Assembly (NCBI GenBank): GCA_052327205.1
Contig: CM126231.1
Coordinates: 17,236,001-17,300,000 of the forward strand
Length of the DNA: 64,000 nt
Origin: Somniosus microcephalus
Taxonomy: Eukaryota
Reading direction: 5' to 3'
Shown here piece by piece: positions 2,017 to 62,699 of this stretch (position 1 is the stretch's first letter; each line of letters begins with the position of its first letter). A program made the position numbers and the translations under genes. Below the pieces are notes generated by a model. The model was given only the letters and a program-made list of their open reading frames with translations. It ran no database searches and had not been told where the DNA came from.

Positions 2017-2178
<162 letters not shown>

Positions 2179-3780: not shown

Positions 3781-4002
3781 TAACATCATTGAATTCTGAC
3801 AATGGAGCATTATCTTCAATGAGGATGATCCAGTCACTACCTGACCTGGAGTCATGGTGCAGGGATGTAGGACCTCACTGCATTCGTTAACTGAGACTCA
3901 TGCTATAAATACAAGAAATTATTTATTTGATGATAGTCTCCGCAACAATGAGGATACATGACAAGTCCAGTAAAATCAAAATGACAGCCCCTTAACAAGA
4001 TG

Positions 4003-4410: not shown

Positions 4411-5692
4411 AGTCTGACATCTGAATGTTCACGTCCCATTTGTTTCACTCAGTCTCTGGGTGCAGAAGTTTGATGCAGTTGTTGAAGTGGGTTTTCAGCC
4501 TTTCTGTCTGGAATGGGCAGCACGTTGGCGCAGGTCCAAGTGGCTACGTGCCGGCCCGAGTCCGCAGTGTGTCCGCACGGCGAGCGCTTAGTCTTGAGTG
4601 CACCAAATGGGAGTGATGATGGGTTTTCCCTTGGAGGACAGAAGTGAATGAGCCAGGCCCCACGCTGCTCCCGCACAACTCCCGACACCAGGGGACCCGG
4701 GAGCAAGCCGGCTGCTAAACAGGGAATGGCGTGAAGCAAGGAAGGGAAATCTCTGTTCCAAAATTTCACATTAAAAAAAAAGCAGACACGTTTATCCAGT
4801 TTCATTACGATGTTTTTGACCACTTTATCTCTCTGGCTTTCCTCAAAACATAAGTGGTCAGAGTTTGGGCACTTTGCCAATTCAATACAGGATGTCAATT
4901 AAACCATTTCCACATCCATCAAAGTTATTATTAAATGCTTGCTTTGGTGGATACTAAACATTGTGTGACGCTCGTCTGAGACAGCAGAGCAATGGGTCAA
5001 TAGAACACTAATATCACTGCCAAACCTATTCCTTGACTTGAATGATATACGATGGAGCCCTAGTGTTCGTATAGTGCCTGCGTACCATCAGGTTTATCCA
5101 GTGAGGTTGCTGCTTCTCGGCTGCATGAAAGCAAAACAATGAACAATATTTTTTTTTAAGAAGGACCCTTCCATAAAATCACTGAGGGTGATTACACTGG
5201 GTGTAGAAAGCAGCCCTTCTTGACCGCTCTCTGGTGTACAGGACAGACTACCAGTCCATCCGTCCATCTCTCACGGTCCACCGCTGTAGTACTGCCCCAG
5301 ATTGGTTCCACGTCTGCCTACCCCAATGAAGCCAGCACATTTCCTGCGATGACTTCTCCTTGGTCCCTGCATGGTGTCCCTTCCTTTTTCTCATCTGCCT
5401 GCTACCCCTCAGCACTGTTGTTCTTCAGTGTGGGGGGGTTCAGATTTCACACGTATGCTGACTGCACCCAGCTCTTGCTCTCTGCCACCACCCTTGACTC
5501 CTCAAACACCACTCTCCAATGCCTAGATTTCAAAATCCTTGTCCTCCTTCAGGTCCTTCAGCCTTCTCCCTCCCTATTTCTGCCGGCTCCTTCAGCCCAT
5601 CTTCCTGCACGTGTCCTCCGCTCTTCCACCCCTACAACTCTCCTACCTTCAATAGAAGAGCACTCGGCCCCATTCACAGGATTGCTTCATCT

Positions 5693-6150
5693 AAAAAGAA
5701 AGACTTGCATTTATATAGTGCCTTTCACGCCCTCGGGACGTCCCAAAGCGTTTACAGCCAATGAAGTACTTTTTGAAGTGTAGTCACTGTTGTAATGTAG
5801 GGAACGTGGCAGCCAATTTGCGCACAGCAAGCTCCCACAAACAGCAATGTGATAATGACCAGATAAACTGTTATAGTGGTGTTGAATTGAGGGTTAAATA
5901 TTGGCCCAGGACACCGGGGATAACTCCCCTGCTCTTCTTCGAAATAGTGCCATGGGATCTTCTACGACCACCGGAGAGGACAGACGGGACCTCTGTTTAA
6001 CGTTTCATCCAAAAGATGGTGCAGCACTCCCTCAGCACTACACCGGGAGTGTCAGCCTAGCTTTATGTGCTCAAGTCTCTGGAGTGGGACTTGAATCCAC
6101 GACCTTCTGACTCAGAGGGGAGAGTGCCACCCACTGAGCCACAGCTGACA
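5693..6150 (-). mobile_element. Full-length tRNA-derived SINE (DeuSINE/SacSINE1-like)
   Basis: tRNA-like head at the right end (reverse A and B boxes). About 455 bp, collinear with 29276-29734. Confidence 0.8.
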
Positions 6151-7094
6151 CACAAACCCCTCCACTCTGCTGTCGCACTCCTTTCCTTCAAAAGCCTCCT
6201 CACAACCTAGCCCCTTGATCTTGCTTTCAATTGCTGCGTCTAATTCGTCACCCAGTGTTGTTTTCACTCCTGTGAAATGCTTTGGGAGATTTTGTGATAT
6301 TAAAGGCACTGTACAAGTGGCCTCGGTTTAACGTCTTGTCTGAAAGACAGCACCTCCGACAGTACTGCTCTGGTGTGTCCGCCTGGAGTTTATGCTCCAT
6401 TCCCTGGAGTGTCAAGGGAACAGCCTCTAGCTCGGGCGAAGGTGCTACTACTGAGCCATGGCCGACACCTTGCAGTCAACGATCTGATCGCGTCAGTTTA
6501 CCACCGGGCGGGTTTGGTTACAATTACCCCCAATATATCAATGAATCCATCAAACGAACTTGGTTTTGTCCAATGGTTCGACAGATAAATTGAGAGAGGT
6601 CTGATGACTTATGATGGTTCGAAATAGAGGCTCACTGTACCGATCCCTACCGTAACCCATTCCTTTCCAGCATCTCGGAACTGGGAAACTGTTCCACTCT
6701 CTCAACCTTCCCTTCTTCCAACAAGCTCATGGCTTTTAAAAGCTCAAGCGTGGCATCACCTGATCGCTACTTGTTCATTCATTGGGTTTTCGCTCCTATT
6801 CTTTCCATCGTTGGTCAGTGCGGCTCCGCCGTTGGCCACTGTGGACCTCTGCTTTCTCAATTAGAAAAGAAAAAGGATCCACTTGGAAATGGTTTCAGAT
6901 TTGGTTTTGAGGAACTCAAAAGGGTCAAGCAGCCCGAACTCAAAGGCACTGCACAGGTCAACCTCAACTGCAAGGCAAGGCAGCATCAGACAAAGACGTA
7001 AGGATTAGATATAGACACCAGCCGTCCTCCCTGAGGCCATAGAGAATACGAACAGAGATACATAGACACCAATATCGCCATCCTTGATCATTGG

Positions 7095-7497
7095 GGAATG
7101 GTAGCAGAATGGTTAGCTACTGGACTAGTAATCCAGAGCCTGGACTAATGATCTGGAGATATGAGTTCAAATCCCACCACAGCAGCTGGGGAATTTAAAT
7201 TCAGTTTATTAAATCTGAATAAAAAGCTAGTATCAGTAATGGTGACCATGTAACTACCAGATTGTCATAAAAAAAACATTTGGTTCACTAATGTCCTTTA
7301 GGGAAGGAAATCTGCCATTCTTACCCGGTCTGGCCTATATGTGACTCCAGACCCACAGCAATGTGGTTGACTCTTAACTGCCCTCTGAAATGGCCTAGCA
7401 AGACACTCAGTTGTATAAGGTGGCTCACCAGCACCGTCTCCAGGCGGATGTACATTGTCAGCGACGCCCACATCCCACGATTGAATTAAAAAAAAAT
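7095..7497 (+). mobile_element. tRNA-derived SINE, second family, with LINE-derived tail
   Basis: gtagcagaatggttag...gagttcaaatccc head and A-rich end. Related copies at ~10177-10320 and ~62700-62975. Confidence 0.7.
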
Positions 7498-7745
7498 CAG
7501 ATGTAGCATGGACCCGGGAGATCAGTAACATCAGGCCTGGTATGTCTTGCCTGTACTTGCTGCCTGGCAAAGTGCTGCTCACCTAGGCACTGAAAATAGA
7601 AGGGAAGAGGATTCATTTTTTTTTACATAGAATGTACAACACAGAAACAGGCCATTGCAAACAAAGCTGCACTTGCATTGTAATTCCAGCGTCAAGCTAC
7701 TTACTTGAATTGTGATATTATTTCTACAATTCAACTTCTAAATAG

Positions 7746-8054
<309 letters not shown>

Positions 8055-9415
8055 TAACGAGACATGGACTGTGACATTGATTGAAACTGAAAGCTTGGCG
8101 CTCGGGATTATCCAGTTGGTTAAGAGTGAAGTGTCTTTGCAAGTTTATCACCAGCTAGCCAGTGGCGTGGAGTAACCATGGGCCGGTGGGAATTGGGCTG
8201 GTGAGGGTGGGACAAGCAGCAAGCTCCCCCATGACGTTGCCAGTGTGAGGCCCTGGCGATCCTTATTCCCGGGACTACTTTTAATATGATTGATGGGCTG
8301 CCCGCCCAATTGTGTCGGGGAACGGTATCTTTTGGAGTGGGGTTGCGGGTTCACGTTAGCGGCTGCGCACTTGGGCTGAGTTGAGTGCCTTATCTCAGCC
8401 AGGCTACTAATGGGAGAGGCATTGAGAACGGAAGCAAGGCGCTTTCCCTTAGAAGGGGAGGGAAATATCGGAGGGTGTTTTGAGTCCCATCTCGTGGTGC
8501 TGTTTGTAACTTGTGAGAAACGTGCCACAGATATTACTGGAAGGACACCTGCCAAAGGTAGAGTCCTCCTCGTGCTCGGAATGGAGCTCAGTGCCCATAT
8601 GCAAACCACGGGTGGAAATCACCTGTGACATTGTCGCTTAAAGTAAAGAGCTCCTATAGTGGCCACTTTTCTGCCGAGACACCTCCTCAAACTGAGCCAG
8701 TCTGTCAGTTCTGCGTCAAGATAGGCATAACAGCTGTTAGGGCCAAGAGTACTGAAAGGGGCAAGATGGGGATTTACCCACATCCAATCTTCTCCCCTCG
8801 ATAACAAACGCTGTCTTCTAGCCATCACAGGACCAGTCTGCACACCTCGGCTCCTCAACTACAGAAACTGGACCCAAATACTATCTCTTACCCCACATAA
8901 AGATCGATATGTTCCTCCTTCTTTCTACAGCTGGTTGTAAGGGTAAACTTTACAAACGCACACGACGGGCAGAACCTTACCTGCTGGAAGCACGGAGCGC
9001 GAAACCGCTCCTCCCAGTTTTCCGCCCGTGAATGATTCCACTTCAGTAAAGAGGTCCAATAAAGTTCCTCCAGGACAGAAAGATACGGTGATCTTAACAT
9101 AGAGAATACTGAGCACAACCAATTGTACTTTTACACAGAGTTTGTGCTCGGCTCCACCCAAGCGCACGTCAGATTCCCAAGGCCCATGTTCCCTCCAGTA
9201 AAGTGGCAACTAGATGAATAAAATAATAGGAAATTTACTCTGTCTGATTGCAATGGAAGGCGAGGAGGACTGCATCTAAATGGGTCACGATCATGTTTGG
9301 GTTTTAGAAATGAAAACGTACGCCTGTTGAAGCTGCGAATGACCATCTATACTCCGAGTTAAACATTCACCTTTTGGTTTTAACCTTGTATGAAAAGTTC
9401 AGAACTGCTCTTTGA

Positions 9416-9562
<147 letters not shown>

Positions 9563-11555
9563 TGAAGGCAACTTGCTTTGACCAGCCGATACCCAAAGGG
9601 AGCACCTTAGTAATTCCTTTCCATCAAACATTAACAGTCACGCCACTCAACTGTCCCCCTATAATGGGAAGGTCCCAACATTACACAACCCCTCCGAGCG
9701 CAGTGAACAGTGGGGTGACAGACTCCAAGCCAGCAACTTCAGCACCACTGCCCCAATCATGGACCCGAATTGCACCCTTTCCCTGCACTGCAGGCCGAGA
9801 GGCACGCAAAAGCATGGTGTGTTTTGCTTTCATTTTGTTTCAGTGAATGTGATTGACATTATCGAGGGGATTTGAATGGCAGGCTGACTGTGCAAAGGAG
9901 CTGGCTGCCCAGCAGAGAAGCACTGGCTCCACTTAAACTGTGTGCTTATCAATTCAATTCTCTCTCGGCCCCCAGCCCAGTAAATCCTGCATGCCAGGAT
10001 TCCCCTGAGAATATCGGCACTCCTGGATAGGACAGAAACAAGCTGATGATTTAACCGCAGTCCTGATCTTAAGGCTCTCTTCACGGAGATCAAAGAGCTA
10101 AAATGGGACTTGGAAAAAAACTGGTTTTGCTCCAGCTCAGAAGCCCATCACCTTGCTCAGAACCTCCATGGATACGGTAGCATGGTGGTTATGGGACTGG
10201 ACGAACAACCCAAATGCCGCCACAGCAAGTTGTGAACTAGAACTGCAAATCTGGTCATTGTGCTGTAAAAACCCAACTGGCCTACATGTGACTCCAGTCC
10301 AACCCGATGGCCAATAAATGCTGCCTTGCCAGAGAATCCTCTTTAAAAAGTGCACACTCTCCCCATAGGTACGCATCCCACTCACCTAAGGCCGGAGAAC
10401 ACAGCCGCGAATAGGCATGAGGCAAGGAGCTTGGATTCCCCCTGAGCGTGCAGAGGAGGACCGCTTGAACTCAACTGGTTCAACTGGCACATCTTGCCAC
10501 CATAGAGCTCTGATGAGCTTCCCATTGCTTTGCCAACTAGGTCCACCCTAGGGCACGGGCTTAAACGTTGTCTGGAGCTGCAGTGGGAAGAATCCCAGTT
10601 CCCAGCAGCTGCTGGACCTTTCCAGCACCCATCAATGTGCCCTGTTGAGTGCTCAGTCATCGGCAATGCCTTGGAATACTGTGGACCGCCTTGCTTGATC
10701 AAGTCTGCCACAGGAGGGCCAATTTGTTCCCATTGCCAGGCTGGCTGCTATTGGAGCCAACTCAACCCAAAAGGAGATGCTGCTGATCTGCCCCTTCTGC
10801 CCTAGTTGGGCATTGGATAACTGACAAAGTGTGGGTCTGAGTCTTGATTCAATAGGAACTTCGAAGTAGGAAAAATGAAGTTGTTGATGGATTGAGTGTA
10901 ATTTGGCCAGCAACAGCGCTTGATTTAATAGTTACTGGCAGCGACAGCTTTGGTTCCACTTTATCTGTGAATAGGGATGTCTGTGAGGCTGCAGTCAAAC
11001 CAGTTTTTGCAACTTACTACAGAGAAATAAACAACTTCAGCCCTCTTTAAAGTCACTGAGCAGCGATCCGAGAGTCATCATCAGTAACATCACTGGGCGC
11101 AGGGGATAGATTTTACCACAAGTAATGCACTTCTTTCCAAATAGTGAATTATAATAGATAGTAACAAAAGTAAAGCACATTTTATTTTTTTTCTGCGTTG
11201 CCTCGTTCTCTTGCTTTGGCAAGTGGCCAGTCAGTGCAATAGAAAAATATAAATCCTTAGACACTGAAGGGAATCGTGTTTTTTTTACCATTGGGTTTGA
11301 TGCTGTGATTGTTTTCGGGGTAGATTACTTTCCTGTGGCAGTGCACTGGTTAATGCAGTCCTTGAGAATACTTTTACAACCCCGTTTATTTTAAACTAGA
11401 AATTACACCATACTTGGTGCGGACCAAGGGAGGAATGTCCTCACTCCTCCACTTAAGTAAAGAAGGAAACAAATGTTGTTAACTTGTGTGTAAAATACAT
11501 GCCATTTCTTGTAATTCTCTGCCAACTTTACCTCTGTTTTTCTGTCCCCTCCTAG

Positions 11556-11678
11556 TTTCCTTCCCCCGAGTGGGACACAGTTACTCCGGAGGCAAAGAAC
11601 CTCATCAACCAGATGCTGACGATTAACCCTGTCAAACGTATTACTGCCACCGAGGCACTGAAACACCCCTGGGTCTGT
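11556..11678 (+). CDS. CAMK2B: CaMKII beta coding exon ([41 protein letters not shown])
   Basis: cctAG acceptor, GTAAGT donor, 123 nt. Encodes the end of the kinase domain. Confidence 0.96.
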
Positions 11679-12136
11679 GTAAGTGTTCAACTGCCTGCGT
11701 TCCTCAGGAGAAGCTTTTAACCACCTCTTTCTTCATCACCATTACCCGGAAACCAAGCGCTCATTTAAAACACGTTTTAGTTTCAAAACGATATCGCTTT
11801 TGCCAGTGCTAAAACTTAGAAGGCAGAAAATGATGTGTTTACACAGAAGATTGATTGGATACAAACACCTCACGATTGTTTTTGAGGCCAATGATAGATT
11901 TCTGCCTGTGCACATTTCTTCCATCTGCTACATTTAATGTGGGTTGTCTGCGTGTACCTCCTGTGTTCACACTGCAAGGAATCGTGGGATAGCCGGTCAA
12001 CGGAGAAACAGTACTTGGATATTTTTGTGTGTTTTTTAGTGGGGTGGGGAACGAATGGGGAAATGTGTTCACAGTAAACCAAAATTATATTGAAGCAAGG
12101 GACGAGCTTTCAAAAAAAAATCTCGGTGAAGTTTAA

Positions 12137-12511
<375 letters not shown>

Positions 12512-12829
12512 TGAGGAACTTGTCCAGTCCCTTTTTTTTGAACCCTGTCATAATTCCTTATTGCCCACCCTCACTGCTGGTCTGGTCTGCATATTTCTCA
12601 CCCTTTCACTAAAAAAAATTGCCTGAATTTCCTTTTTTTTTGTGCCTCCCTTAATGTTAAATAAGGAGTCCTGTTCTTGAAGTTCTTATACAGCAGAAAA
12701 ACTTCTCCGTATCCATGTTCTTCAAATCTTCAATGTTAAATAATTCCATCAATTCACCCTCGGACTTCTCGAGAGCAAAGCCCCAGAGTAGCTGACCGCT
12801 CCCCCAGAGTTTGGACCTCTTAGTTCTGG

Positions 12830-13148
12830 AATAGTGCAGTAACAGTGGAGTGCTGCACTGTCGGAGGTGCCGTCTTTCAGAGGAGACGTTAAACCGTCTG
12901 CCCTCTCAGGTGAACGTAATAGATTGCATGGCACAATTTGAAGAAGAGCAGGGGAGTTCTCCCTGGTGTCCGGACTAAGATTTATCCCTCAACCAACGTC
13001 TCTAAAACAGATGATCTGGTCATTTATCAAATTGCTGTCTGTGGGCAAATGGCCGCCGTGTTTCCTACACTTCGAAAGTCCTTCGTTAGCTGTGAAATGC
13101 TTTGGGATGTCCTGAGGTGGTGAAAAGTGCTATATAAATGCAAGTTTT
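12830..13148 (+). mobile_element. 5'-truncated DeuSINE-like copy
   Basis: Reverse complement of the body and tail of 5693-6150. Confidence 0.7.
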
Positions 13149-13272
13149 GAAGTCCTTTTTTTTCTTTTGCTCAACTTAAACTGTTTGAACATGATGGTGC
13201 TTCCCTTTCTGTGATGTTTACTGATATTTAAATTGCTTACCTTGGCTGACCTCTTCCTTCTTTCCCATCTAG

Positions 13273-13315
13273 GGTGCCATTCTTACCACTATGTTAGCAA
13301 CACGGAACTTCTCAG
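13273..13315 (+). CDS. CAMK2B: CaMKII beta calmodulin-binding exon (GAILTTMLATRNFS)
   Basis: ctAG acceptor, GTAGGT donor, 43 nt, ends in phase 1. Contains the TT inhibitory sites. Confidence 0.95.
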
Positions 13316-17063: not shown

Positions 17064-17135
17064 TGGGCAGACAGACCACTGCGCCAGCTACAATGACAGC
17101 TGCCGCCAGCGCGACTGTTGGTCTCGTTGAACAAG
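17064..17135 (+). CDS. CAMK2B: CaMKII beta variable-linker exon I ([24 protein letters not shown]), homologue of the F-actin-association exon
   Basis: gacAG acceptor, GTAGAC donor, 72 nt, phase 1-1. Closely resembles mammalian beta [25 protein letters not shown] and identifies the paralogue. Confidence 0.93.
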
Positions 17136-23310: not shown

Positions 23311-25196
23311 GATTTGGGAATATCAGGTTTGAGTAGTGCACAATTCAGCCAGAGATAGCTAAGAGGAAAGAACTATTTGTTCCCTATTTGTAGCAAGATA
23401 CTGAATGCGCTTTTTATTCGCACGCTCACAGAATGTCAAAAGGGAACATCTTTCCCCCAGGTGTCAAGTGGAACCAACTGACCTTGCTAAAAATCTGAGC
23501 AAAGCAAACCGTGTCCATTATAGTCCCCCTCCAAGGTGATTATTATCGTACATATAGGAACATTTCCCCCCCCCCAGGTTTTTTTTTGTTGAAAAATAAC
23601 AATGTGTTTGTTGAACTGCAGTTTTTGTGTCTGTGGGAAGAGTTTTTTCATCTCGCATCCACTACAGGAAGACTCCTGGTTTGAAGTTGCTGTTTTTGAG
23701 AGCAGTTTGAATTTTGCTGTGATCCTACAAGGGTGTCCCCTCGCACCATTTGAGCTGCACACCAGCTGCAGTATAACGGTGTGCAGCCATTCTTTTAAGG
23801 TTCAACAGTGAAGTTGACCAGATCCCAGGCAATTCACTGCTAGCAGACAGGTCCAGTCCCAGAGTGTGTCACAGAGCGTTGATTCAAGGCTCGTCGCTCT
23901 CCCAGGATGTTGTTGTGAATTAGTCCTTTTCAGACCGGACAGTCCACAAACTGTCCTCTCAACAGGAAGACGAAACAGAGAAAAGAGCATCGACGCTGAG
24001 TTTAAAACAGCTGTCGCTCCGGTTGACACTAATCTTGGGGTAAGATTTCCAACACAAAGGTTAAGATTTGCTCCATAAGAAATCAGCTGTATTTTAAGTA
24101 AAACATAGCTGAATAAAATGTCCGTGGTAGGTTACTGAATGTACTGTGGCTAATAAATTCATCACTGCTCTATGAACTTGAAGAGGATGCAACAGTGAGC
24201 TCCTCCCAGTCACAGTCTTGTGAAAGTTTGAAGAAGAATACAACGATTTAGTTCAGAGATACCTGAGAAAAAGCCAACCTTGGTGTGTGGTGATTGAATG
24301 GGTAGTGTCTCCTGGAAGATTGATTGGCATACGGCCTTTGCACTTAGTGACAGATCAGTTACCCATTTGTACACTTCTTAAATTAACTGCCCGCCCATGA
24401 GAGGCTCCCATTGCACCACCAAAGACCATAGTTTTACAGGGATTTGTGCAAGGGTTTGAATCTCTTGGGTAGAACTAGAATGGTATTGCACGTAATTTCA
24501 GTAGTGCATTGATCTGATTGTACGAGTGTGATGTTTATACCTAATCCAACTTTTTGTTCCACAGTTTATTTACTCTTTAAGGGGATTCGCACCATCGATA
24601 TCCCAGTTGAAAAATCAAACTGTTACAGAACAGTTGGGATAACCTTGGACAACCTCTTGTTTAAATATGGTAGATTAATGTAAACGTGGGGGAGAAATGG
24701 TGGCGCCTGACCATGCGAGTGAACCAAACACGACGACCCCTTTAACCGTCTTCCCTTTTCGTGGTGAGCTCTCTTGCTGCATGGCTCGCGACTGCTTCCC
24801 CAGGCCAGTGCTTTGAGGTGGGGTGGAATTCTCTCGACTAGCAAAGGGGCTCCAGAAGCACTCTGGCAGCTCGGCCATTTGTAGAGGGACTCGCCTGGTG
24901 TTTTAAGGTGAAGTGCGTGCAGCCATGGGGCGCCACTGTTGGACCCGTGTGAGCCGCAGGAAAAACAGGTGAGTCAAAGACCCTGCCTGCCCTGCGAATG
25001 ACACCTAGCTTCTGGCGTTCCCCAGCTGGTTGACTTGTCTTTGATAGTGTGTTGAATTTCCAGTGGTTACAGCAATGTTGCCACGTACTAGTGCAAATGG
25101 TGACGGTTTTATTATACCCGGACAGGGCAGTCGTGTCTTTAATCTACAAACTGAGATGAAAGTAATTTTCTTTTTTTTTTCTTTTCCAAAATACAG

Positions 25197-25237
25197 CAGC
25201 CAAAAGTTTACTAAACAAGAAGGTCGATGGAGTAAAG
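25197..25237 (+). CDS. CAMK2B: CaMKII beta linker exon II ((A)AKSLLNKKVDGVK) with tandem CAGCAG acceptor (start 25197 or 25200)
   Basis: Long T tract, tacAGcAG acceptor, GTAGGT donor. Matches AKSLLNKKADGVK. Confidence 0.94.
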
Positions 25238-33400: not shown

Positions 33401-34679
33401 GATGTGAAGGGCATGAGCCAGGCACGGATCCGCACCCTCGAATTGCCCATTCTGTGAGGCGGAAAGTTTGGAGCGGAGGTGCACGATGCTTCCCCGCAGA
33501 GCGAGGGAAAGAAAGGAAGAGGGCGAGTCGAATCGAGGCGCTCTTGCGCAAGCTTGGCAGGGAAGGAGTTAAAAGGGGATAAATTACTTTATAAAAGAAA
33601 ATTGAAGGGAGGAGGGCAAGTGAGAGAGAAATGGAGACAGCTCTAAGTGTCTCGTTGCAACAACTGTGGATTAATCCCTGGTTTTAAAGGTGTGCAGAAT
33701 ACATTAATGACACTAATGCTCCGGTGACTGGTTTCAGAGAAGTGTAACGTTAACACACAACACAGCAACAATTCCATATGGAAGCACAGAGAGAGTCATA
33801 AAGGTACACACTGCAGCATTCAGGTCCATCCTTACATTCTGCATGACCTTCTATCCTTTACATAAAAACCCTTATTTGAACAAGTCCTTTGCTCATCCAT
33901 TTTGTTACGAGGATTATTGTTTGTTTTTAGCTTGGCGTTACAGGGAGGGGCAAAAAAGAAAGCTGTTTAGGGCACAGTATTGTTCACCTGTGTGGTAGGG
34001 GTTTTTTACATTCTACCTACAGTCTTGGTTTCTCTCTTGCTTCCTTTCGACAGCACTCTGCCCTGTACTGTCCCCTCCCCTTTTTTTTTTTTAAGTTTGC
34101 CGTTAGTGTAACCCAGCTGTGCTTCGCTATCCCATCGATTGGTCTGCTGGAGGGATGATGGCAAAACCAAGTGGACATGCATTCTGGGTCTAAAAACTGA
34201 ATCTGTCTAATTGTGCACTGAGAGGTCCGAGGCACCCGACGAGAACCTTCGGCTCCTACAGCGAAGTGCACCTTGCCATGATGATACTTTACCAGAGAAC
34301 TGGGTTTTATAAATAATCAGCTTGCACCGATAACGCCTGCCTCGGCACTTTTAATCTTGAGTTGGGGAATTGAGGTATATGTCTGATGAGTTTCACCTCG
34401 CTGCACAGTCGGGGAGAAGGTTAGACATGGCAACAGCAAAACAACGAAAACCGTAGCCTTTAGGTGTTTTTTTTTTACCCAGTGGCTTTCACCAAATGTG
34501 TAGGGAAAATTACAGAAGAGAAGGTTTTTAAAAATAGTCAAGGGCCCATTTGACAACTTCCTAGCAGGATTGTTGCTGGCACCACTCTGAGAAAGCAACG
34601 TGGATTTAAGTTATTTATCGGTTGAGTAGAGAATCCTCTTTTTTATGAAGTTATGTTTTCCCTCCACCCCCCTTCTACC

Positions 34680-49957: not shown

Positions 49958-52900
49958 TACTGGATGTTGGACAAGCAGAGTGAGAGTTCATAGGCCGTGG
50001 AGGGGTCAAGCGAGGTAGTGGTGCCAGGGAGAGCAAGACCTGCCCCAAAGGCTGCTACAGTGTGTCATTTCACTCTAACAGGTTCCCTGGCATACGAGTG
50101 CAGCTCAGAGCGATGTGACCTCTGGTTTCCCTTCTTCGCCAGGGTGGGACATTAGGACTCTGCTCCACATGTCCTTCTGAAAGCACAGCGCAAAACTGGG
50201 AACTGAGTTTTGGAGAACTGGCATTCTATAACTCCAGGGCAAGTTTATTTCAAAAATAGACCCTTTTTCTTGTGAAGACTCACACTTTCAAATTCTTTTT
50301 TTCTCTCTTTAGTTTGAGGATTCCTTCACTGCACACCATCTGCAGCTGAGAGTCAGTTGGGTGGGTGAACCAATCCCAAGCATCTGACAGTGAAATGTGC
50401 AAGAGTGTCCCAGTTACAATCACTCCCCTTTCGGGGAAACACCTGCCCTTTGCTCAATGCTTCTCAGATTGGGAATTTGCTGTGGAAGATTGAACCTGCT
50501 AACTGAAGTCCTACCTCTCTGAGACACTGGCTGTTGGCACCTCGGAATCAGACCTTGAAGCAGAAGGCTGGGATGGGAAGAGAACAGGGATATGGCCCAT
50601 GCACCTCATTACGACCCGGCTCCTTGCTTAGGGTGAGGACAAAGACTGGTGTCAATCTTTAAAAACCATCCATTAGAAACTATCACTTGTAGGCGAATTA
50701 ATTGCTCGGATGCCAGTGCAACGTGCAAACCCAGCCCTTGTGTTAGGAAACATTGAAGGAGTTAGTTGGGTCGAGGTGTTAACAGCTTTGAAATACTGAA
50801 GTTTGGTCCATTTAAAAGAAGCTGTGAAAATTTCAACTGAGGCTTTTAGGCTCCACCTTTTTTTGTTCTTTTATTTCAACTGCAAATGGGTAGAATGTTC
50901 AAAGACCACGATAATGTAGCTCTGAAGTACTGTCACTGGATGCAAAAGAGAAAATGAACGGTTCTATTCTTCAACGCTGCCACACCTCTTGTTGGTGAGC
51001 ACAGAGGCAAACTAAATTGATTGAGAAACGTACTTAATAAGCTTCAGAAATAAGATGCAAAATATGTTGTATAATCATTTTTTTTTAAATTGCGCTTTAG
51101 GAAAGAAGAATTGTAGTGTGGCCCAGCCTGGCTCTCACCCAGGAAGCCTGGGCCCCCGAGACCCGAACCCTGTGCGACACTTCAAACTGCCCACCTCAGT
51201 TGGGAGTTCTGCCACCGAGCGCTAGGGGTACCGTGTCGAGTGTGCCACAGGGTGGTGGGGGGAGGGAAGGGTGGCCGAGGCAGGATGGGAGGGCAAATGA
51301 GCTGGCCTCACTGCGGTCTTCTGCTCCTTCTGGAGAAGGATCTGCCACGACTGTCGGATGGGTCTGTGAGGCACCAACCCACGCCAGCCTCCCTCCCGGG
51401 CGACCGGGGTAAGATTGAGGGGAAAATGGCAAACGTCGAAAAGGAAATAGGAGAGGAAAAAAGAAAATGGTCAAATAAAAATAAAATCCCTGAATTAAGT
51501 TAAGAATTGTCCCATTTAGGAACATGTTTTGAGTTTGGTGGGAGGGGGAGTGGTGAAGAGAGGTTTAAAAATAACCATTGGTTATGTCTCACGTAAAAAT
51601 GCATGATTGAAAATAGCTCAACCAATGTCATAGTTTATACCAAAGTGTATGCATGTTCACAACTCTTCCTTTGAGCATTCTACCTGAGTATGGAATGAGC
51701 CCTTTCACCAGTACAGACGCCCTCTTAATGGCTCTCGAGTGGAGTCGCCTCAGAATTTAAATTCACAACGCAAGATTTCTCTTCCTGTGACACAATTAGA
51801 TTTGGTATTCTGCCTGTGACGTATTTGCATAGGGGATTTGTTTAAATTGAAATGTTATCAAAAAAGAGCACTTAACTAAACCTTTCAACAAGTTATCTTC
51901 CATAAGAGATTGATTTTAAAATCCACTGGGCTGATGAAAGGGTGGAAAAAGCTAAAATTTTTTTGGATCTATTCTTTGATTAATTGTAATTTATGCTACA
52001 AAGCTGCAGCATCCCTTTTATTGTTAACCCTGAATCATCCAGAGGGTGATGTTCCAGACTCGCCACTTGCCCTCTCTGCAACAACGTGATTCCCGGCCAC
52101 ATTGTCGTACACCAAAGCGAAAGTTTGATCCGGTAATGGCCTTAGCTCCTCACAAAGATCACCAGGATCAGTACGGATAAGGGCTGCGTTCAGTCTTACC
52201 TAGTTCATCCTTCCATGGAAGCTCACACGTCCCCCATCGTAGTACCCAACTGCTTCTGGGAAGACTTGAGCTTTTCCCTAGGCTACCCGAAGCAGAAGGC
52301 CATTCTCAAACATGTAGGCAACAAATAATTTTGTCATCCATTGAACAGAGCGAGCCATTGATAGAGATTAGCAAACAAATAGACATGGCCATGCAATTTG
52401 GTTGACAAACTGGTCTCAGTCCACCTTTTTGTTTCTTTGGCCACATTTACTCTTTCCTTTCCCCTTTTCTCATCCCTGTTGTTGCTTACGTTATCTTTGT
52501 ACCAGGACCCCCACTTCAAGCCTGGCTTGTGTCTTCAGTATTCAGTCTCCGCTCTCACCTGTCAGAAAGGAACAGCGGTGGAGCTTGAACTGTAACTTCC
52601 TCACAAGCTGGCCAACAAGCCAAGGGCACTTTGTAGAGTGGAGTAGTTCTGCCTCCCTGCCACTTGTTTCTCTCCCCCCCGCGCCCCCCCCCCACCCTCC
52701 CTTACGAGCTAAATTACTCCCCTGTCTCCCACCCTTCGACCAGTAGATTCTTACACTTCACATCTTAAAAAAAGAATAATCAAAATGGCCTGAAACAAGC
52801 ACAGAGAGGGGAAGTCTGAGATGAGAGACTATCAAAAACCAAACTGTAGGCCACCTTGGTGCATGTGCAACATCCTTTCTCCAGCGACTAAGCAGATTGG

Positions 52901-53294
52901 AGGTGCAAGATCGATAAATAACAAGGTGCTGGATCTCCATCCATGTTCCAACATAGGGACAAAAAGTGTCCCAGAGTAAGCAGACATTGGGAAAACCTCC
53001 TGACTCAGCCAGCATCCAGAGCGTTCACTGGATAGATGTTAGTTTTTTGAGCCTCTGAGAAAGGGATACTGCAGCTTGATTACCTGTGTTTGAAGTCATA
53101 TGATTTGCACTTTTTTCAGGATTTCGAGGCATTTTATTTTCTCGACAGTGTCCTTTTAAAAACACTGACCCTGAGAATTAGTCTTTAGGATTGTGTACCT
53201 GATCTGGACCTGGTGTTAGGAAATCTGCCACATGTGCAACAAGTCACCATTTCTTGTTCTTTTTTTTCTTTTTCTCGTATCGGTCTCTATTCAG

Positions 53295-53327
53295 AAAAGG
53301 AAGTCAAGTTCCAGTGTTCAATTAATG
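53295..53327 (+). CDS. CAMK2B: CaMKII linker exon III, NLS insert (KRKSSSSVQLM)
   Basis: Strong pyrimidine tract plus tcAG acceptor, GTGAGG donor, 33 nt, phase 0-0. The peptide matches the alphaB/deltaB-type NLS insert and lies in the expected order between exon II and the PQTN exon. Confidence 0.9.
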
Positions 53328-53989
53328 GTGAGGACCCTTTTGAAATTTCAAATTCACTTCACGTTAATCTTACTTATTCTCTTCCCCCTTCTCATCTCTG
53401 CCAGGAGGTGACAGAGTCATCTGTGTATGTTTACAGCTTTTCATTACTTTAAATCCCCATCAGAATAGCAAGTACTAAAGTCTGTGCATGTTGACAACGG
53501 TTAGAGATCCATCTTGGTAAATGGCATTGAACTGTGGTCTAACGCCTCCTTCCTTTTTCTCTCTCTCTCTCTTGCTTCCTTCTCCTTCGCTTCTACCTGC
53601 AAGGTTCAAATGTACTTTCTGGATCACCATAGCACTCGGTAGCAGAATGAAAACCTTACTAGTTAGATAATTCAACCGGTTGCAAGTAACAAAAGCAGCG
53701 ACCGAGTGATTAGATTGGATTCTCTGCATCCTTTTTACACTGTGTTTATGTATTAACATTTGATTTTACCTTTGGATCTTTGTTGCTGTGAATGAACTGT
53801 AAAGCGGGAGAGAATTATCCAAAGCATACTTAACAAATGTGCATATGAGGATTGTCACATAAAATTATTCTCCGCTTTGGACAGCAATTGAAGAGCCGTA
53901 ACCCAGCCTCTGCAATATCTTAAAAATGCAGTTCTAAATTTGCTAAACATTCACAGAGTTCCCCAAAAATGGTCCTCCCCATTAAATCA

Positions 53990-54305
53990 TAAAAAGACTT
54001 GCATTTATATAGCGTCCTTCACGACCTCGGGGCGCCCAAAGAGCTTCACAGCCAATGAAGTACTTTTGACGTGCACTGTTGTAATGTAGGAAACATGGCA
54101 GCCAATTTGCGCACAGCAAGCTCCCACAATCAGCAATGTGATAATGACCAGATAATCTGTTTATAGTGATGTCGATTGAGGGATCAATATTGGCCAGGAC
54201 ATCGGGGAATACGCCGCTGCTCCTCTTCAAAATAGTGCCATGGGATCTTCTCCGTACACCTGAGAGGACAGACGGGGCCTCGGTTTAACTTCTCATCCGA
54301 AACGC
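53990..54305 (-). mobile_element. DeuSINE-like 3' portion
   Basis: Matches 5693-6015. Confidence 0.75.
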
Positions 54306-54695
54306 TGAAATCATGAGCACTCCCCCATCTCAGTCAGGGCTTTGAGGTTCCGACATGACGCAGAGGCCATATAGTGAAATTCCACCTGTTCGTAGTCACT
54401 GGGCAGAGTTCTGGCCCTCTCATTTCCAGTAACCTCGCTGGGATTGCTCTCCTAGAATAACTTGCGTAAGAAAACCCGACAGCCAACCTCTCACATTACA
54501 GTAGTCAGTTAAATTCTTGCCTAGCTGAAGATTCAACCCGAGCCTTTATCCTATGAAATCGAACAAATGTGGGCAAAAGATCATTGAGTGTAATGACATG
54601 TAGCAAGGGGTGGGCAGAAAGAGCCCACTGCTGGCAGGAGCACGACTTGCTGCTGTCAAGGTTGTTGGACTACATCCCTACTGAGATCCTACAGT

Positions 54696-55105
54696 AAGAA
54701 AAACTTGAATTTATAAAGCACCTCATCAGGTCTTGCAGGAACGTTCCAAAGCACTCCACACAGCGAATTGCTTTGAAGTGCAGACACCTATGTAAGTGAA
54801 TGTGGCAGCCATTTTGTGCACAGTGAGACCCACCAACAGCCAGGAGATGACGGATCTAGTTTTGGCGGTGTTAGTTGAGGGAGGATTGTTGGCCAGGACA
54901 CCAATGGATGTGGTGAAATGAGATACAGCAGAACTCCCTGCTCTCCTGAATAGTGCCATGGGACCTTTAATATCCACCTGAGCAGGCAGTCAAGACCGAC
55001 CTCTTTGACGGCTCATCCAATAATGCAGCACTCCTTCCTAGATTATGTGCTCAAGACATGGAGTGGGGCTCGAACCCACCGCCTTCTGAGCCGGAGGCAA
55101 TTGAG
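54696..55105 (-). mobile_element. Diverged DeuSINE-like copy
   Basis: Collinear with 29276-29734, with indels. Confidence 0.65.
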
Positions 55106-56794
55106 CTAATCTGAAGTAATGTGAATCACTGGTGACCATTTGAAAGTGCAGGCATTCCTATAAGGAGACACAGCCCTGGCTCCAACCTCTGACTCAACAG
55201 TTAACTAATGTGTTTCATCTTACCACAAAGCACTAATTTTTTTTTTATTAAGACATACCGCTGCCAAAAAGCAGCAGCTCTCATGTCAATAATGAAGTGA
55301 CTGTGTGCATATTAAGCACATCAGAAACTAAAATGAACATTGTGTTGCTCATTATTGCTTTAATGGGTTGGAGTGATGGATGTGATGAGATACAGTGCAG
55401 CTATTCATTGCAGAGAGATGTTCTTTAGCACTGTTCCACCAAGGGACCAGAGATAGAACCATACACAACAAGCGAACAGTGATTTATCACTTAATGACTG
55501 AGTGTTACAATGAAATGTTCCTGGTTACCAAAACCCACATGGATTTCTGTAGCTCATCTCCAGTATCTTCGAGCAATAACTCTGGCACCATGAGGTACAG
55601 GAAACTTTGGTTTATCCGGAGGTTAACTGTCCGGAATGCTCGAGCCACCGGCAAAAATCAGGAGCCGTTTCGTTAGGTTTTTTTTTCTTTTCGTTGCTTT
55701 TTTTTCACCAGTCAGGCTCTGCAAGGTCTCGCTGAAGCTGTTGCTAAGCTACAGAGACGCTTGCAAGGTACGGCCGACTGTTTAGAAGCTGTAAGCAACA
55801 GGGTTTGTTGCCAGATACGGAGCTCAAAATCTCCGTATGTTTCAACATTAGCGCTGGTTTGTCCGGCAGTTTTGATGGGACGGCAACAGCTCGGTCCCAT
55901 CGGTGCCGGATATCACAAAGTTTCCTGTAATGTGCAATCATTCAGGTTGGCCGGTGAGAATTTTAGTCAAGTCTCTGACACTAAAGATGTGGAATATTTC
56001 TGCTATAACTATTTGTAGAGTGACATCAATCAACTTAAAAGCTATTCTCTACAATGCAATACAATTTAGTGCTTTTTTGAACTTTTACTCCCTGTCCCAC
56101 CCCAGTAGTACAGCTGCACAAATAGAAGTCCAGTAAAGTTCAGGCTGACTCATTCCATTCCTTTTTGAACTCTGAAATAAAGGAGATTTTAATTTTTCAG
56201 TCCCTTTTTAATAAGAATATTATGATTGTGGGACCAAGGACGGCAGACGGAGTTAAGATACAGATCAGCCATGATCTAACTGAATGGCGGAAGAGGCTCG
56301 AGGGGCTGAATGGCCGCCTCCTGTTCCTACCTCTGTTCTTTTGTGGATTGACACGTGGATTCTCCGGTACCCTCTTCCCTTCCCCACCCCCATTCACTGG
56401 ACAAATTTTATAGGTTTTGCAGCAATCCTGTTTGCTCCAAACAGATACCATGCAGCACTGATCGGGCTACGAACAGCCTGCTAGATAATTAGAAACAAGT
56501 ACAATTAGCCAAAATCATACTGAAATTTGTGTGATTAAGGTGGGGAAATTTTTAATTGAAACATTGGTTTGTACCAATGAGCAGCAATTATTAAAAGATG
56601 TATTTTAGATGGTGTTGGTTGAAATTGAAAAGGTGCTTGTTAATGGAAAGCTCCCAGGCCCCTCTCAGTGCTGCTCCGAGCTGTACTGGAATAACCAGGG
56701 CCACTCAGCCCCCGAGTTCCCTTCCTCCCTGCCCGCACCAATCCAGCCTTTGCTCAGTGTCTGCCACTAGAGTTTCATCAGGAAAGGAAAACTC

Positions 56795-57228
56795 AACAAC
56801 AACAACTTGCATTTATATAGCGCATTTAACATAGTAAAACCTCCCAAGGTGTTTCACAGGCGCGTAATCAAACAAAATTTGACACTGAGCCATGAGATTG
56901 GTCAAAGAGGAAGGTTTTAAGGAGGGCCTTAAAGGAAGAAAGAGAGGCGGAGAGGTTTAGGGAGGGAATTCCAGAGCTTGGGGCCTAGGCAACTGAAAGC
57001 AATGGTGCAGCGACTAAAATCAGGGATGCTCAAGAGGCCAGAATTGGAGGACGCAAAGATCTTGGAGGGCTGGAGGAGGCTATGGAGATGGGGAGGGGGC
57101 GAGGCCATGGAGGGATCTGCAAACAAGGATGAGAATTTTTTAAATGGACGCGTTGCTTAACCAGGAGCCAATGTAGATCAGCGAGCACAGGGATGCTGGG
57201 TGAACGGGACTTGGGATACGGGCAGCAA
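56795..57228 (-). mobile_element. L2-clade LINE 3' fragment
   Basis: (caa)n reverse tail. Minus-strand translation PVLADLHWL and AFSCLGPKLWNSLP. Confidence 0.78.
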
Positions 57229-57944
57229 ATGAGCAATGCTTTCTCCTCTCTGTGCCAAGTCCTACGGAATGCGTCAGTGCTGTGTCACCCGAGGACTGAA
57301 CCTTCAGGGACCTGGAAACTTAAATTGGATATTGCACAAGTGTGGTGAAAATGGCAGCTTCTCCTTGTAGCTGCTGCAGTGAAATCGTTTTTGAAGCCGG
57401 CGATAACTTCTTGTGAACTTGATTGGTTGATTGTTTCGCTAGAACGCTTAAATGATTCTAAATTTAATATTCGATGTTTGTGAAAATATTTCTGAATGGC
57501 TGAAGGTTTTTTTTAAACCAATAATCTTGGAGAGGAAACAGCAGCAGCTCAGTCAACAGCTGTAGGGGAAACAAGTGGAAAGGGTCTGGGTTGGGCTCTT
57601 GACAGGGTCTCAACTGAAACACAAATCATTCTTCTTCCTTCCCTCGCCAGCTGACCCTGCCGTCTCTCTCTCTCCAGCATTTTCGGTTACTTGCAGCATG
57701 CACAATTCTTATTTAAGCAGGAGGGGGGAAAGCTTTTTGTGGATAGACCCACACACACACTGATTAAAAATACGGATTTCGACAGGCTGAAAATCTTTGT
57801 GTGCTTGCGTAACATCATTAGAACACGAGCCGCAGCTTGTGCAAAGTTGTACTTCTAAGGCAGGCAAGTTTTTGGTAATTCTGTGGACAGGAGGCGATTT
57901 AAGAAGCAAAATTTGAAGTGATGTTTAATTACTATGGTGTGGTC

Positions 57945-59419
57945 AGGGAAATCCCACGGATTGGAAGGTAGCAAATGTAACCCCACTATTTAAGAAAGGA
58001 GGGAGAGAGAAAACGGGGAACTACAGAACAGTTAGCCTGACATCAGTCGTAGGCAAAATTCCAGAATCTATTATTAGGGACGTGGTAACCGGACACTTAG
58101 AAAATAATACAGTAATAGGATTGGGCAGAGTCAACACGGATTTATGAAAGGGAAATGGTGATTGACGAATCTGTTAGAGGTTTTTGAGGTTGTAACTAGC
58201 AGAATAGATAAGGGGAACCAGTGGATGTGGTGTATTTGGATTTTCCGAAGGCATTCGATAAGGTGCCACACAAGGTTATTAAACAAAATTAGGGCGCATG
58301 GGATTGGGAGCAATATACTGGTATGGATTGAGGATTGGTGAACAGACATAAAACAGAGAGTAGGAATAAATGGGTCATTTTCGGGTTGGCAGGCTGTAAC
58401 TAGTGGGGTACCACAAGGATCAGTGCTTGGGCCTCAGCTAGTCAGAATCTATATCAATGATTTGGATGAGGGGACCAAATGTAATATATCCAAGTTTGCT
58501 AATGATACAAAGCTGGGTGGGAATGTAAGTTGTGAGGAGGATGCAAAGATGTTTCAAGGGGATATAGACAGGCTAAGTGAGTGGGCAAAAACATGGCAAA
58601 TGGTTATAACGTGGAGAAATGTGAAGTTAATCCACTTTGGTAGGAAAAATAGAAAAGCAGAGATTTTTAAATGGTGAGAGATTGGCAAATGCTGGTGTTC
58701 AGAGGGACCTGGGTGTCCTTGTACACGAATCACTGAAAGTTAACATGCAGGTACAGCAAGCAATTAGGAAAGCAAATGGTATGTTGGCCTTTATTACAAG
58801 AGGATTTGAGTATAAGAGTAAAGACATCTTACTGCAATTGTATAGGGCCTTGGTGAGACCACACCTGGAGTATTGTGTACAGTTTTGGTCTCCTTACCTA
58901 AGGAAGGATATACTTGCCATAGAGGGAGTGCAACGAAGGTTCACCAGACTGGTTCCTGGGATGGGGGGGATTGTCCTAGGAGGAGAGATTGAGGAGACTA
59001 GGCCTATATTCTCGAGAGTTTAGAAGAATGAGAGGCGATCTCATTGAAACATACAAAATCCTTACAGGGCTTGACAGAGTAGATGCAAGGAGGATGTTTC
59101 CCCTGGCTGGGGAATCTAGAACCAGGGGTCACAGTCTCAACAAGGGGTCAGCCATTTAGGACTGAGATGAGGAGAAATTTCTTCACTCAGAGGGTGATGA
59201 ATCTTTGGAATTCTCTACCCCAGAGGGCTGTGGAGGCTCAGTTGTTGAGTATATTCAAGACACAGATCGATAGATTTTGGATATTAAGTGAATCAAGGGA
59301 TATGGGGATAGTGCAGGAAAGTGGAGTTGAGGTCGAAGATAAGCCATGATCTTATTGAATGGCGGAGCAGGCTCAAGGGGCCGAATGGCCGACTCCTGTT
59401 CCTATTTCTTACGTTCTTA
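57945..59419 (+). mobile_element. 5'-truncated CR1 LINE (RT and 3' UTR), same subfamily as 48712-49957
   Basis: ORFs with [15 protein letters not shown] and [15 protein letters not shown]; tail ttcttacgttctta. Confidence 0.92.
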
Positions 59420-60289
59420 AATCAAGTTGATTACTTAGGGACACAAACTAGGCTCATTCTAGGGACCTCACTATGGTTATAGATAGAATATCTTTGGTTG
59501 ACAGCATTAGATGTGGTAGAATTAGGTTGTACAGGCCCATTTTTGAGCATATGGTTTTGTTTAGTGTAGGGTACAGGCAACCCAAGGCAGACTCAGAACT
59601 TCCTTTTCTCCAGTCATAAGTTCAGTGATTTACAAAGCTCTGAGCTGTGCTCGAAACAAAAACCGAAAGCTGTGCCTGACCTGACTGGCCAGTTCCAATC
59701 TGGATTGAATTTGGAAACATCTGCATCTGTCTGATGGCTGCTTCTGATCCGGATGGAAATTCTTGGTGTGCGTTCCTGCCGTGTCTGCCCTCTGCCCAAA
59801 TTCCAAAGTCTCCTTTCAGCCCAACTTGTGGCAGTGATGGCAGCTGCCAAGAGGCTTGACTGTAGCGCAGCCCTGAGTAACGACGGACCTGCAGAGGCAA
59901 GGCCGTATAAATCAAATATTGAATATTTAGTCGAGAGTCCAGAAATTGATGCAGCTTCCCCTTTTGGAAAGAAAAGGTCAGTGGCTTGTTGCCGATTGGG
60001 GTTTTTAATAATCTGGAGCCCATCATCAATATGACATGGACTCGGCCCAGCTCATACAGCAGCAAGATCTACAGTCGGAATGTTTCCGGTTGAATCCGGA
60101 GGGACTTATTAATGAAGCTTTTTGACTATGGAAGTATTTACCCCCAAATGGGCTGCGTTGAGTAAAATGGAAATTGGCTGCAGGACATTTGACTGGGGGT
60201 TCTTGTCTATGTTTTGGGGGAAAACTGATCAAAGCAACAAGATTTTATCTGGGGAAAAAAAATCTATTATTTGTTCATTTAAGATCTTT

Positions 60290-60631
60290 TGGGTCGTTGT
60301 CGTACATGTCTTCACACTGTTCCCTTTGGGGAACTGTATGAAGTGGTGGAAGGATTTCTGGGTGCGATTAACGCTCCTTCCGTGACCGTAACCATCTTCG
60401 TACCAGCCATTAGGGTGGCTAGTCCTATGGCGGGAGGGTTTTACGGGCTCCCACAACCCATACGAGGGGGGGGGGCCACCCACACCCACGGACGCAAGTA
60501 TCCCGCTGGATGTCAACCCAGAATTTAGAGCCGGAGCTCCGACTCCACTTGCCGGGACTGTCTGGAGCGGGTTTCGAAACCCTACGCCTTCTGGCCCAGT
60601 GGCGGGGATGCTACCGCTACGCCAAAGGCCC
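60290..60631 (-). mobile_element. Probable tRNA-derived SINE of a further family
   Basis: Minus strand starts gggcctttggcgtagcggtagc (A box) ... ggtttcgaaaccc (B-box-like), with a CpG-rich body. Confidence 0.55.
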
Positions 60632-61436
60632 ACTCCATCTTTTGAGTGACGGCATATTTCTTGTTTTTGATAGTAGTCCCAATTGCCACCGAGTTTTTTT
60701 TTATAAGCACCTCCTCTGTGGGTTCAGCTAACAAAAGAACATCCTAATCGTCCATGTTATATCATCCAAGGGATTGCGCTTGTGTGTCTTGGTTAAATCA
60801 CTACCGTTCATTTGGATGCAATCTGTAGGCGTTGGCAATAGTGACTGGTCCAACTCGACTAATGAGGGATTGAGAAACGGTACTGGAAATGGTGTGTCGC
60901 TGACTTTGATGTTCGTAATTCTTTCTTTTGCTTTTCTAGTGAAATTGAGCTGTCTGACGTGCCATGCTTTCACTGCGCTGATGGAGCTCTGTGTAGCTCC
61001 CACAACACGTGGCAAAAACAGGTCCCATATTAACATCACATGTTCTCATTTGTAAATCGCCACGCCCAAAAATAAATCTACTTTTGAGAACGAGTGTGAA
61101 ACTGCACAAAGATAAAGCAATTAAATTGGGCTGTTTAAGAAAATCGTCTTAGCCTTTTCAAAGTGGTGCCCACTCTCGATAGAAATTGGCCCCCCTGCTC
61201 TTTGAGGCTCGCACTCATGTGTCACCTCACAGCAGCGGAGCGAGCCCGATCCAAAGAACTATCGCTGGCACCGGGTCAGGTCACCGTTTGCAGCTTACCA
61301 TCTGCATCTGAACAGGCTGCGCACCCCAGACAGTTCAGTATCTGCCGGCTCAGCTTGATCTACCGTCCCAGGCGGGACTAGGAGGTGAGGAGTGGACATG
61401 AAATAAACCTAAAACCCTCTGTTGTTTTCTGCACAG

Positions 61437-61505
61437 CCCCAGACAAACAGCACCAAAAACAACGTAGTAACCAGTCCCAAAGGAAACATTCCCTGCCCTG
61501 CACTG
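61437..61505 (+). CDS. CAMK2B: CaMKII beta linker exon IV/V ([23 protein letters not shown])
   Basis: cacAG acceptor, GTATTG donor, 69 nt, phase 0-0. Resembles mammalian beta [24 protein letters not shown]. Confidence 0.92.
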
Positions 61506-62699
61506 GTATTGCCTCTTCTTATACTACTTTCAGAGGCACTGGTGAAGCATGGCTGGATCTTCAATTAACTTGGTTTTGCCACCGAACCAAAAAAATTGTT
61601 TTGAGGGCTTTGTTAATGACCTTCTGCAACTTGATTCCATCGCGTCTCCTTCAAACTAATACTGTTCCATGAATTGCCAGAGGAGAAAACCTTTCTCCAG
61701 CTTGGCAAAATGCAGGACTCCAAGACACCATTTCCATTTAATAAATGGCTTGACTTACAGAAACTTGGACTGTTCTGTGCAGTGAGCTCCAAATAAGTTT
61801 GGTGGTCGTCTTTCTCCCCCAATAGATAACTTAAACTGAGTACCTCAATAGTGAACATTTTAAGTGGTGCGCATTTAAATTGAGCAAGTTGATGAGTATT
61901 AATATAATTCAGCGCCCACTTTGTAGGGAGCAGGTGAAAGCCATGTTTCACGAGTACCTCCTGTTTTAGTTTGTCTTGTTATATCTTGCACTGGCTTTTC
62001 TCTTCGCTAATGACTGTGATATGATTCAGCAGCTTGTACCGGGAGTGTCAGTGGGAAGGGGCGCTCAGTGAGAAAAAATTATTTTGGTCACACCCCCTGA
62101 TTAATTTATCTTTTTGGAGGGGGAGAGAAGATGAATAAAATTTCCAGGTAAGTCAGAGGAGGGTTTTCTTTGCGTATCTCTTTGTGGTTGGTTGTGGTGC
62201 AAGGGGCCAGAGTAACTTTCTTTCGACCCCCCGCTCCTTGGTGCGTGGATGGAGTGGGGCGTGCCGAAAGAGCCACAGCCACCGCAAAACAGAGAAAGCT
62301 GACATGACCCCACACGAACATACAATGTCAATGTGCAAAACTGGAGTGTAGATGAAATCTCTTGCCTTCAGATGTTCAAAGCCTGCTGACACTCTACAGA
62401 TTACACTTGGCAGGGTGTTACTAGACTAAGGTCTAACACATACTGACGTTTTGGTCCTCCAAAGGGTTTTGTTCCAGCTTTTGGCACAGCAGCAAGTTTT
62501 GAACTGTTCACTAACTTTGTTCAGAAACTATTATTAAGCCTTGGCCCAAGCGTTAGTACCTCGGGCGGGGGGGGGTGGTTGAGCCATTTAACAGCAGCAC
62601 ACTCTCAGTAATCAGAAATCTTGCTTTATTAATAAATATACTTTGGGACTGGACAACACAAGAACCTCATTCGCTACATAAATGGTTACTGTAGATTGA

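Follow-up and report, generated by a model that had tools for sequence, protein, structure and literature searches.

The CaMKII gene in the window analysed here, i.e. the whole stretch of 64,000 nucleotides at G000:C30:17236001-17300000 of the 6.4 Gb genome of the shark Somniosus microcephalus, raises the question of whether a beta-type kinase gene can encode a nuclear localisation signal (NLS) of its own. Standard mammalian beta isoforms lack the NLS exon, as the initial annotation had stated and as Cook et al. 2018 (PMC5882894) report for mouse, rat and human beta in the same text that describes the exon, v3N, in shark and bony-fish beta. We consider it probable that positions 53295-53327 represent an ancient v3N cassette exon of shark CAMK2B, inclusion of which completes a basic signal that importins would likely use to take the kinase ring to the nucleus as long as the adjacent serine is unphosphorylated. 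The features on which this reading is built are as follows (positions are those of the window unless a contig is named).

2065-13314, plus strand: six exons of the kinase and regulatory regions, belonging to the same gene, limits at codon level (about 2065-2175, 7965-8051, 9458-9553, 11556-11678, 12155-12238 and 13273-13314, plus strand)
17064-17135, plus strand: v1 linker exon, homologue of the mammalian beta F-actin-binding exon 13
25197-25237, plus strand: v2 linker exon (exon II), its last codon being the first NLS lysine; tandem acceptor
33738-33803, plus strand: v2x, candidate cassette exon of 66 nt, bounded by AG and GT, phase 0-0, ending in lysine
53250-53294, plus strand: v3N acceptor and pyrimidine tract, alignable in part with the gamma and delta acceptors
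53295-53327, plus strand: v3N linker exon (exon III; human exon 15), 33 nt, phase 0-0, three NLS basic residues followed by four serines
53485-53490, plus strand: TGCATG, candidate RBFOX site, 158 nt 3' of the v3N donor
61437-61505, plus strand: v4 linker exon (exon IV/V), 69 nt, beta type

In the window sequence v3N is flanked on its 5' side by a pyrimidine tract and AG and on its 3' side by GTGAGG, and it translates without a stop into the 11 residues KRKSSSSVQLM, in agreement with the intact 33-nt, phase 0-0 exon with acceptor and donor first described here. The final codon of v2, which closes at 25237 in phase 0, encodes lysine, as required by the proposal that a junction lysine completes the basic NLS, and v4 starts at 61437, also in phase 0. 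The length of 33 nt, the 0-0 phase, the placement between v2 and v4, the preceding lysine and the serine after the basic motif are thus all those of v3N. The match is not a chance one, since the second-best ungapped match of the peptide in the whole window reaches a score of just 21 of 49, and a genome-wide DNA search with v3N gave three copies only, each within a CaMKII gene. The lysine directly precedes v3N in 120 of 126 collected v3N-bearing proteins. Among sharks, rays and chimaera the 11-residue peptide does not vary, and it matches that of mammalian alphaB, being identical to the translation of human alpha exon 15 when compared by eye.

With respect to the other linker exons, the v2 tandem acceptor (25194-25199; exon starts at 25197 or 25200) gives forms differing by one alanine, and v1 has a second donor after 17162 that adds nine residues, both forms being known from isoforms annotated in sharks and rays. 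Five further linker exons, at G000:C30:17316277-17339878, separate v6 from the hub (two repeats resembling those of muscle beta, two flanking exons and a 36-nt exon at 17339843).

To which paralogue does the gene belong? The hub family PF08332 has four loci in the genome, on C30 (the window gene), C29, C2 and C8. Compared with human structures, the last hub exon is of alpha type for C8 and of delta type for C2, and human beta is the best match for both C30 (163.6 vs 157 bits) and C29 (160 vs 155.5 bits), so the hub exon alone cannot separate beta from gamma. Scores of whole proteins do decide: bit scores of P0003 (window-gene type) were 641.3 with the human beta kinase and 685.3 with gamma, and those of P0119 (Callorhinchus gamma) 627.8 and 693.5, respectively. 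In a phylogenetic tree (18 rows, nine exons, 303 columns; database labels; rows other than human or named delta), C30 groups with seven named beta proteins from Callorhinchus, ray, shark and flounder with a support of 92/91 and C29 with Callorhinchus gamma with 86/86, both the beta and the gamma fork being unstarred and the bootstrap not settled. Among named proteins, those nearest to the window gene are CaMKII isoforms of sawshark, which map onto the window exons and are identical at 302 of 303 compared residues; these models may stem from the genome analysed here or from one very near to it, and they do not count as independent evidence.

The neighbourhood was compared with the cattle gene order NPC1L1, NUDCD3, CAMK2B, YKT6, GCK, MYL7, POLD2 as given in PMC7655849. 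A Nudc_N exon, the second atlas match of which is a NUDCD3 cluster (0.94), is located at C30:16945214 in the same orientation as CAMK2B, 105 kb 5' of the first kinase exon mapped. POLD2 and a hexokinase gene are present on C30 at 16.04 and 15.94 Mb, about 1 Mb from CAMK2B, and an NPC1-family gene at 27.0 Mb, where the hexokinase and NPC1-family matches are assigned at the family and not the gene level. YKT6, sought by a Longin search, gave five genome matches, none on C30; hence four of the five neighbour families NUDCD3, YKT6, GCK, POLD2 and NPC1L1 have C30 matches. Furthermore, the CaMKII genes on C29, C8 and C2 have an NDST gene at a distance of 0.2, 1.4 and 5.4 Mb, respectively, and C30 has none of the 15 genome matches to NDST. 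In human, the alpha, gamma and delta CaMKII genes are linked to NDST genes.

The linker exons are likewise of beta type. Using human CaMKII exon sequences from the supplement text of bioRxiv 10.1101/721589, repeat exons 3' of the window that resemble human beta exons 19-21 score 170-171, compared with 37-50 for the other three genes, which lack them, and v1 (actin), v4, v6 and proline-rich repeat exons are all present as judged by eye against human. Based on the tree, the neighbours and these exons, the gene on C30 is CAMK2B, and the beta orthology put forward initially is upheld by the 92/91 support, by the NUDCD3-like, POLD2, hexokinase and NPC1-family neighbours and by the beta-type exons. 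That it is instead CAMK2G or CAMK2D, where v3N would be expected, might be read from the delta or gamma names that some records of the locus carry from their source and from the failure of the hub exon to separate beta from gamma, but this reading is largely refuted and retains next to no probability, given distinct gamma-like (C29) and delta-like (C2) genes with a v3N of their own as well as the synteny and the beta-type v1, v4, v6 and repeat exons in the C30 gene. Isoforms of this one beta locus are named beta, delta or gamma by their sources, and names alone are no guide to orthology.

Is the exon spliced? Words of the window are shared by 24 sequencing runs, none of which is recorded as RNA; the RNA status given below is a program's guess. 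Runs X1, X6, X9 and X22 were aligned on the repeat-free region 52850-53735 and X4 on the longer region 52800-62200. X6 and X9 are from two other organisms and two studies (shared words 0.21 and 0.14, respectively). In both X6 (three contigs) and X9 (one contig) cover is confined to 53293-53328; the upstream loose ends are the end of v2 (window 25208-25235, with one change in X9) and the downstream loose ends the start of v4 (61437-61466). An additional loose end in X6 is the start of v6 at G000:C30:17302469, i.e. v3N joined to v6 without v4 and v5. The junctions 25237>53295 and 53327>61437, named in the initial annotation as a check, are accordingly both present in contigs of relatives. Taken together, v3N joins were detected in two of three probable RNA runs of relatives, with one upstream exon and two different downstream exons. 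In X22, which is DNA-like, a contig runs continuously across both v3N splice sites, as DNA should, and two more contigs have flanks resembling the gamma and delta copies.

For X1, no v3N match was obtained on 52850-53735, and a depth of 3.49 in the exon bin on 52800-62200 was left uncounted; X4 had zero depth at v3N on the 52800-62200 alignment, which is repeat-swamped and gave no informative joint. The v3N-v4 intron is packed with high-copy transcribed repeats at 53742-60650. An acceptor-like AG after a long CT tract (53545-53604) was considered as an exon start and rejected, X6 and X9 giving no cover there and X22 showing ordinary divergence.

Conservation of the flanks was assessed in X22, where 53222-53543 has 6 changes in 323 nt compared with 25 in 456 nt of the outer intron (p 0.014 in a Fisher test on three contigs of depth 2-4, the comparison being post hoc). 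These data bear on the view that v3N is a silent relic in Somniosus microcephalus. The junction evidence does come from runs of relatives, none recorded as RNA, but the splice signals are intact, the exon is part of 12 of 30 sawshark isoform models (possibly built on the same genome) and its flanks are better conserved than the outer intron, and we therefore regard a relic as very improbable.

A candidate element for control of v3N inclusion is the TGCATG at 53485-53490, which is present as initially noted, lies at +158 from the donor and is unchanged in the one DNA contig of a relative (X22) that covers it. The plus strand of the window has 23 copies of this motif, from which the probability of a copy in a stretch of 250 nt is 0.086. 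Among 13 exon ends tested it follows two, v2x (+37, at 33840-33845) and v3N (+158); after the gamma v3N it is found at +324, and after the delta v3N there is none within 400 nt. Binding of Rbfox1 to mouse Camk2g intron 14 is among the results reported in PMC8222303. Enhancement of v3N inclusion by RBFOX through this candidate site is plausible, and the motif could also be due to chance.

Of 120 proteins returned for the beta locus, 107 were grouped by species and 13 (fragments, unnamed or gamma-type records) were excluded. Among these gene models, v3N is present in 43 of 107, in 8/8 species, directly after v2 or v2x: sawshark 12/30, Heptranchias 4/13, Callorhinchus 1/1, Rhinoraja 8/18, the two Mobula species 3/7 and 9/21, Narcine 2/7 and flounder beta1 4/10. 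It is absent from the remaining 64 of 107, and the annotated isoforms suggest that v3N is also skipped; the RNA-like contigs of relatives contained no junction in which it is left out.

The initial annotation placed v3N in isolation, 28 kb after exon II. This did not hold, as a further candidate coding exon, v2x, lies in between at 33738-33803. It matches an insert in skate isoforms at 18 of 22 residues. Out of 90 candidates, a search with the v2x region retrieved 46 proteins, which belong to seven species, each of them a shark or a ray, and in 46/46 of these annotated proteins v2x ends in lysine and immediately precedes v3N. The query contained v3N, which introduces a bias, and an isoform lacking v3N should presumably still pass the threshold. 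The sawshark gene models have no v2x (0/38), and no homologues above background were detected in the gamma, delta and alpha regions. v2x illustrates how a linker may lengthen while a signal assembled across a splice junction stays intact.

The age of v3N can be estimated from the other paralogues. In this genome the gamma gene (C29:35057758) and the delta gene (C2:129483752) carry it as well, phase and donor context being unchanged, and the DNA identity to the beta copy is 92% (59 nt aligned) and 89% (44 nt aligned), fading about 15-25 nt beyond the exon. For alpha, five of 120 proteins carry v3N (sturgeon, Paramormyrops, Hucho, Albula and Coilia), as does one of six coelacanth records; in a cluster from birds and eels it is present in 5 of 14 members, and it is found in 0/14 members of one cluster of spiny-rayed-fish alpha, perhaps a further loss. 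Since the exon has an identical place and phase in the gamma and delta genes of this shark and in coelacanth, ray-finned fish and bird alpha, v3N most likely predates the split of the four paralogues, as had been proposed for this locus, and was then lost more than once, judging from these sequences. Loss from mammalian beta would accordingly be a later event. The protein searches used to date the loss in tetrapods returned no tetrapod beta, and PMC9772828 describes splicing of frog brain beta as similar to that in mouse, which is not a statement on the frog genome.

Compared by eye, the delta exon at G000:C2:129483752-129483720 has 33/33 bases in common with human CAMK2D exon 15 as displayed in bioRxiv 10.1101/721589, which hints at constraint on the RNA itself. 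Could the beta exon have been gained late by copying from another paralogue? The high identity of the beta, gamma and delta copies would fit such an event, but slow change explains this likeness, the shark delta exon being identical to the human one; the three genes are also on different contigs, the identity fades within about 15-25 nt, and chimaera, ray and teleost beta all have v3N. We give late copying scarcely any credence and favour v3N as an ancestral exon of beta.

Alpha of the shark differs in this respect. In the alpha gene (C8), the 50 kb that separate the last kinase exon from the hub gave a best v3N peptide score of 21 of 49, the v2-v6 intron (G000:C8:265442893-265448258; 5366 nt, no N) has no v3N match above background, and the three copies found by the genome-wide DNA search are those of beta, gamma and delta. 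A candidate decayed v3N at G000:C8:265446924, after a C-rich tract, was rejected, with 18, 27 and 57 of 144 controls equalling it for the beta, gamma and delta exon, respectively. Cartilaginous-fish alpha-named records gave 0/10 with v3N, a weak count as most of these models have no linker altogether. From this one assembly we infer that v3N has been lost from the alpha gene of the shark.

The alpha gene without v3N and the beta gene with it mirror the situation in mammals, gamma and delta keeping the exon, and if shark alpha lacks v3N group-wide, the two paralogues would be a clear example of an exon lost reciprocally following genome duplication. A broader reading would be that alpha and beta are reciprocal (mammals with v3N in alpha and not in beta, cartilaginous fish the opposite, some ray-finned fish with both), that shark and ray beta gained the lysine-ending exon 33738-33803, spliced only before v3N such that the signal survives a linker longer by 22 residues, and that in shark brain it is beta that takes alpha/beta holoenzymes into the nucleus. 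We advance this tentatively, with a probability somewhat short of even.

Concerning function, inclusion of v3N would bring together the last lysine of v2 or v2x and the three opening basic residues of the exon into a four-residue basic signal, and by analogy with the mammalian isoforms importins would carry the v3N-bearing kinase ring into the nucleus. On the same analogy, phosphorylation would gate import at the adjacent serine (position 333 of P0005, an isoform lacking v1), the equivalents of which are Ser332 of deltaB and Ser334 of gamma, and import would depend on the subunit mix in the holoenzyme. For mammalian alphaB, gammaA and deltaB, the relevant parts of PMC5882894 and PMC12642011 describe import through the NLS, a block by phosphorylation of the next serine and an influence of the subunit mix; nuclear targeting of shark beta is inferred from these three isoforms.

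v1 and v3N are separate cassettes and occur together in many models (10 of 30 sawshark proteins, being gene models and not long reads), so one gene could give rise to forms that bind actin, forms that enter the nucleus and forms that do both. Where v1 stands alongside v3N, it could hold such isoforms on actin. Along this line, v3N might be spliced and mainly alter the length or charge of the linker or add phosphorylation sites, with actin binding through v1 or its neighbours barring the kinase from the nucleus. The co-occurrence of v1 and v3N in many gene models fits this, as does the finding in PMC12474881 that calcium sensitivity is modulated by where charged residues stand in the linker. 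On the other hand, the 11 residues are invariant over sharks, rays and chimaera and equal to mammalian alphaB, the lysine before v3N is kept, also at the end of v2x, and the v3N>v6 join in X6 omits v4 and v5 as in zebrafish beta1-K, which is called nuclear by its authors. We regard a role restricted to the linker as unlikely and retain nuclear targeting as the preferred reading.

The presence of v3N in fish and shark beta has been in print since 2018. PMC5882894 gives the entries XP_020367006 (whale shark) and XP_021331923 (zebrafish), and PMC10766190 a cloned zebrafish beta1-K (camk2b1-K) cDNA with v3N; these agree with the initial annotation, which mentioned NLS-bearing beta variants reported in zebrafish and held that the exon may not be wholly new. 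What is added here is a tested beta orthology, junction evidence and two leads, i.e. the absence of v3N from alpha and the v2x exon. Searches of openly accessible papers listed no publication on the loss from shark alpha or on the extra exon at 33738-33803.

The system of PMC5882894 is the closest to ours, with the same exon, paralogue and animal group, considered ancestral and later lost from mammalian beta; in the sections of that article dealing with the exon it differs in being based on GenBank entries, without an orthology test, junction data, shark alpha or the extra exon. The idea expressed there, that mammalian beta lost the NLS on specialising for actin binding, has a natural test in shark beta with its actin and NLS exons. 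The zebrafish camk2b1-K described in PMC10766190 has v2, v3N and v6 joined, with the same v3N>v6 join as in X6, and is called nuclear, but 3 of its 11 residues differ from the shark exon and it is a teleost duplicate gene. Mammalian alphaB, gammaA and deltaB, as presented in PMC5882894, PMC12642011 and bioRxiv 10.1101/721589, share with shark beta the 33-nt exon after v2, the upstream lysine that completes the signal and the adjacent serine. The combination of actin-binding and NLS exons in one gene is not special to shark beta, as human gamma has both. The difference lies in the host paralogue: human beta is without v3N and here it is alpha that is without it. Compared with a mammalian-type CAMK2B, which lacks v3N according to the entries covered in PMC5882894, the shark CAMK2B has the exon, as expected for fish and sharks.
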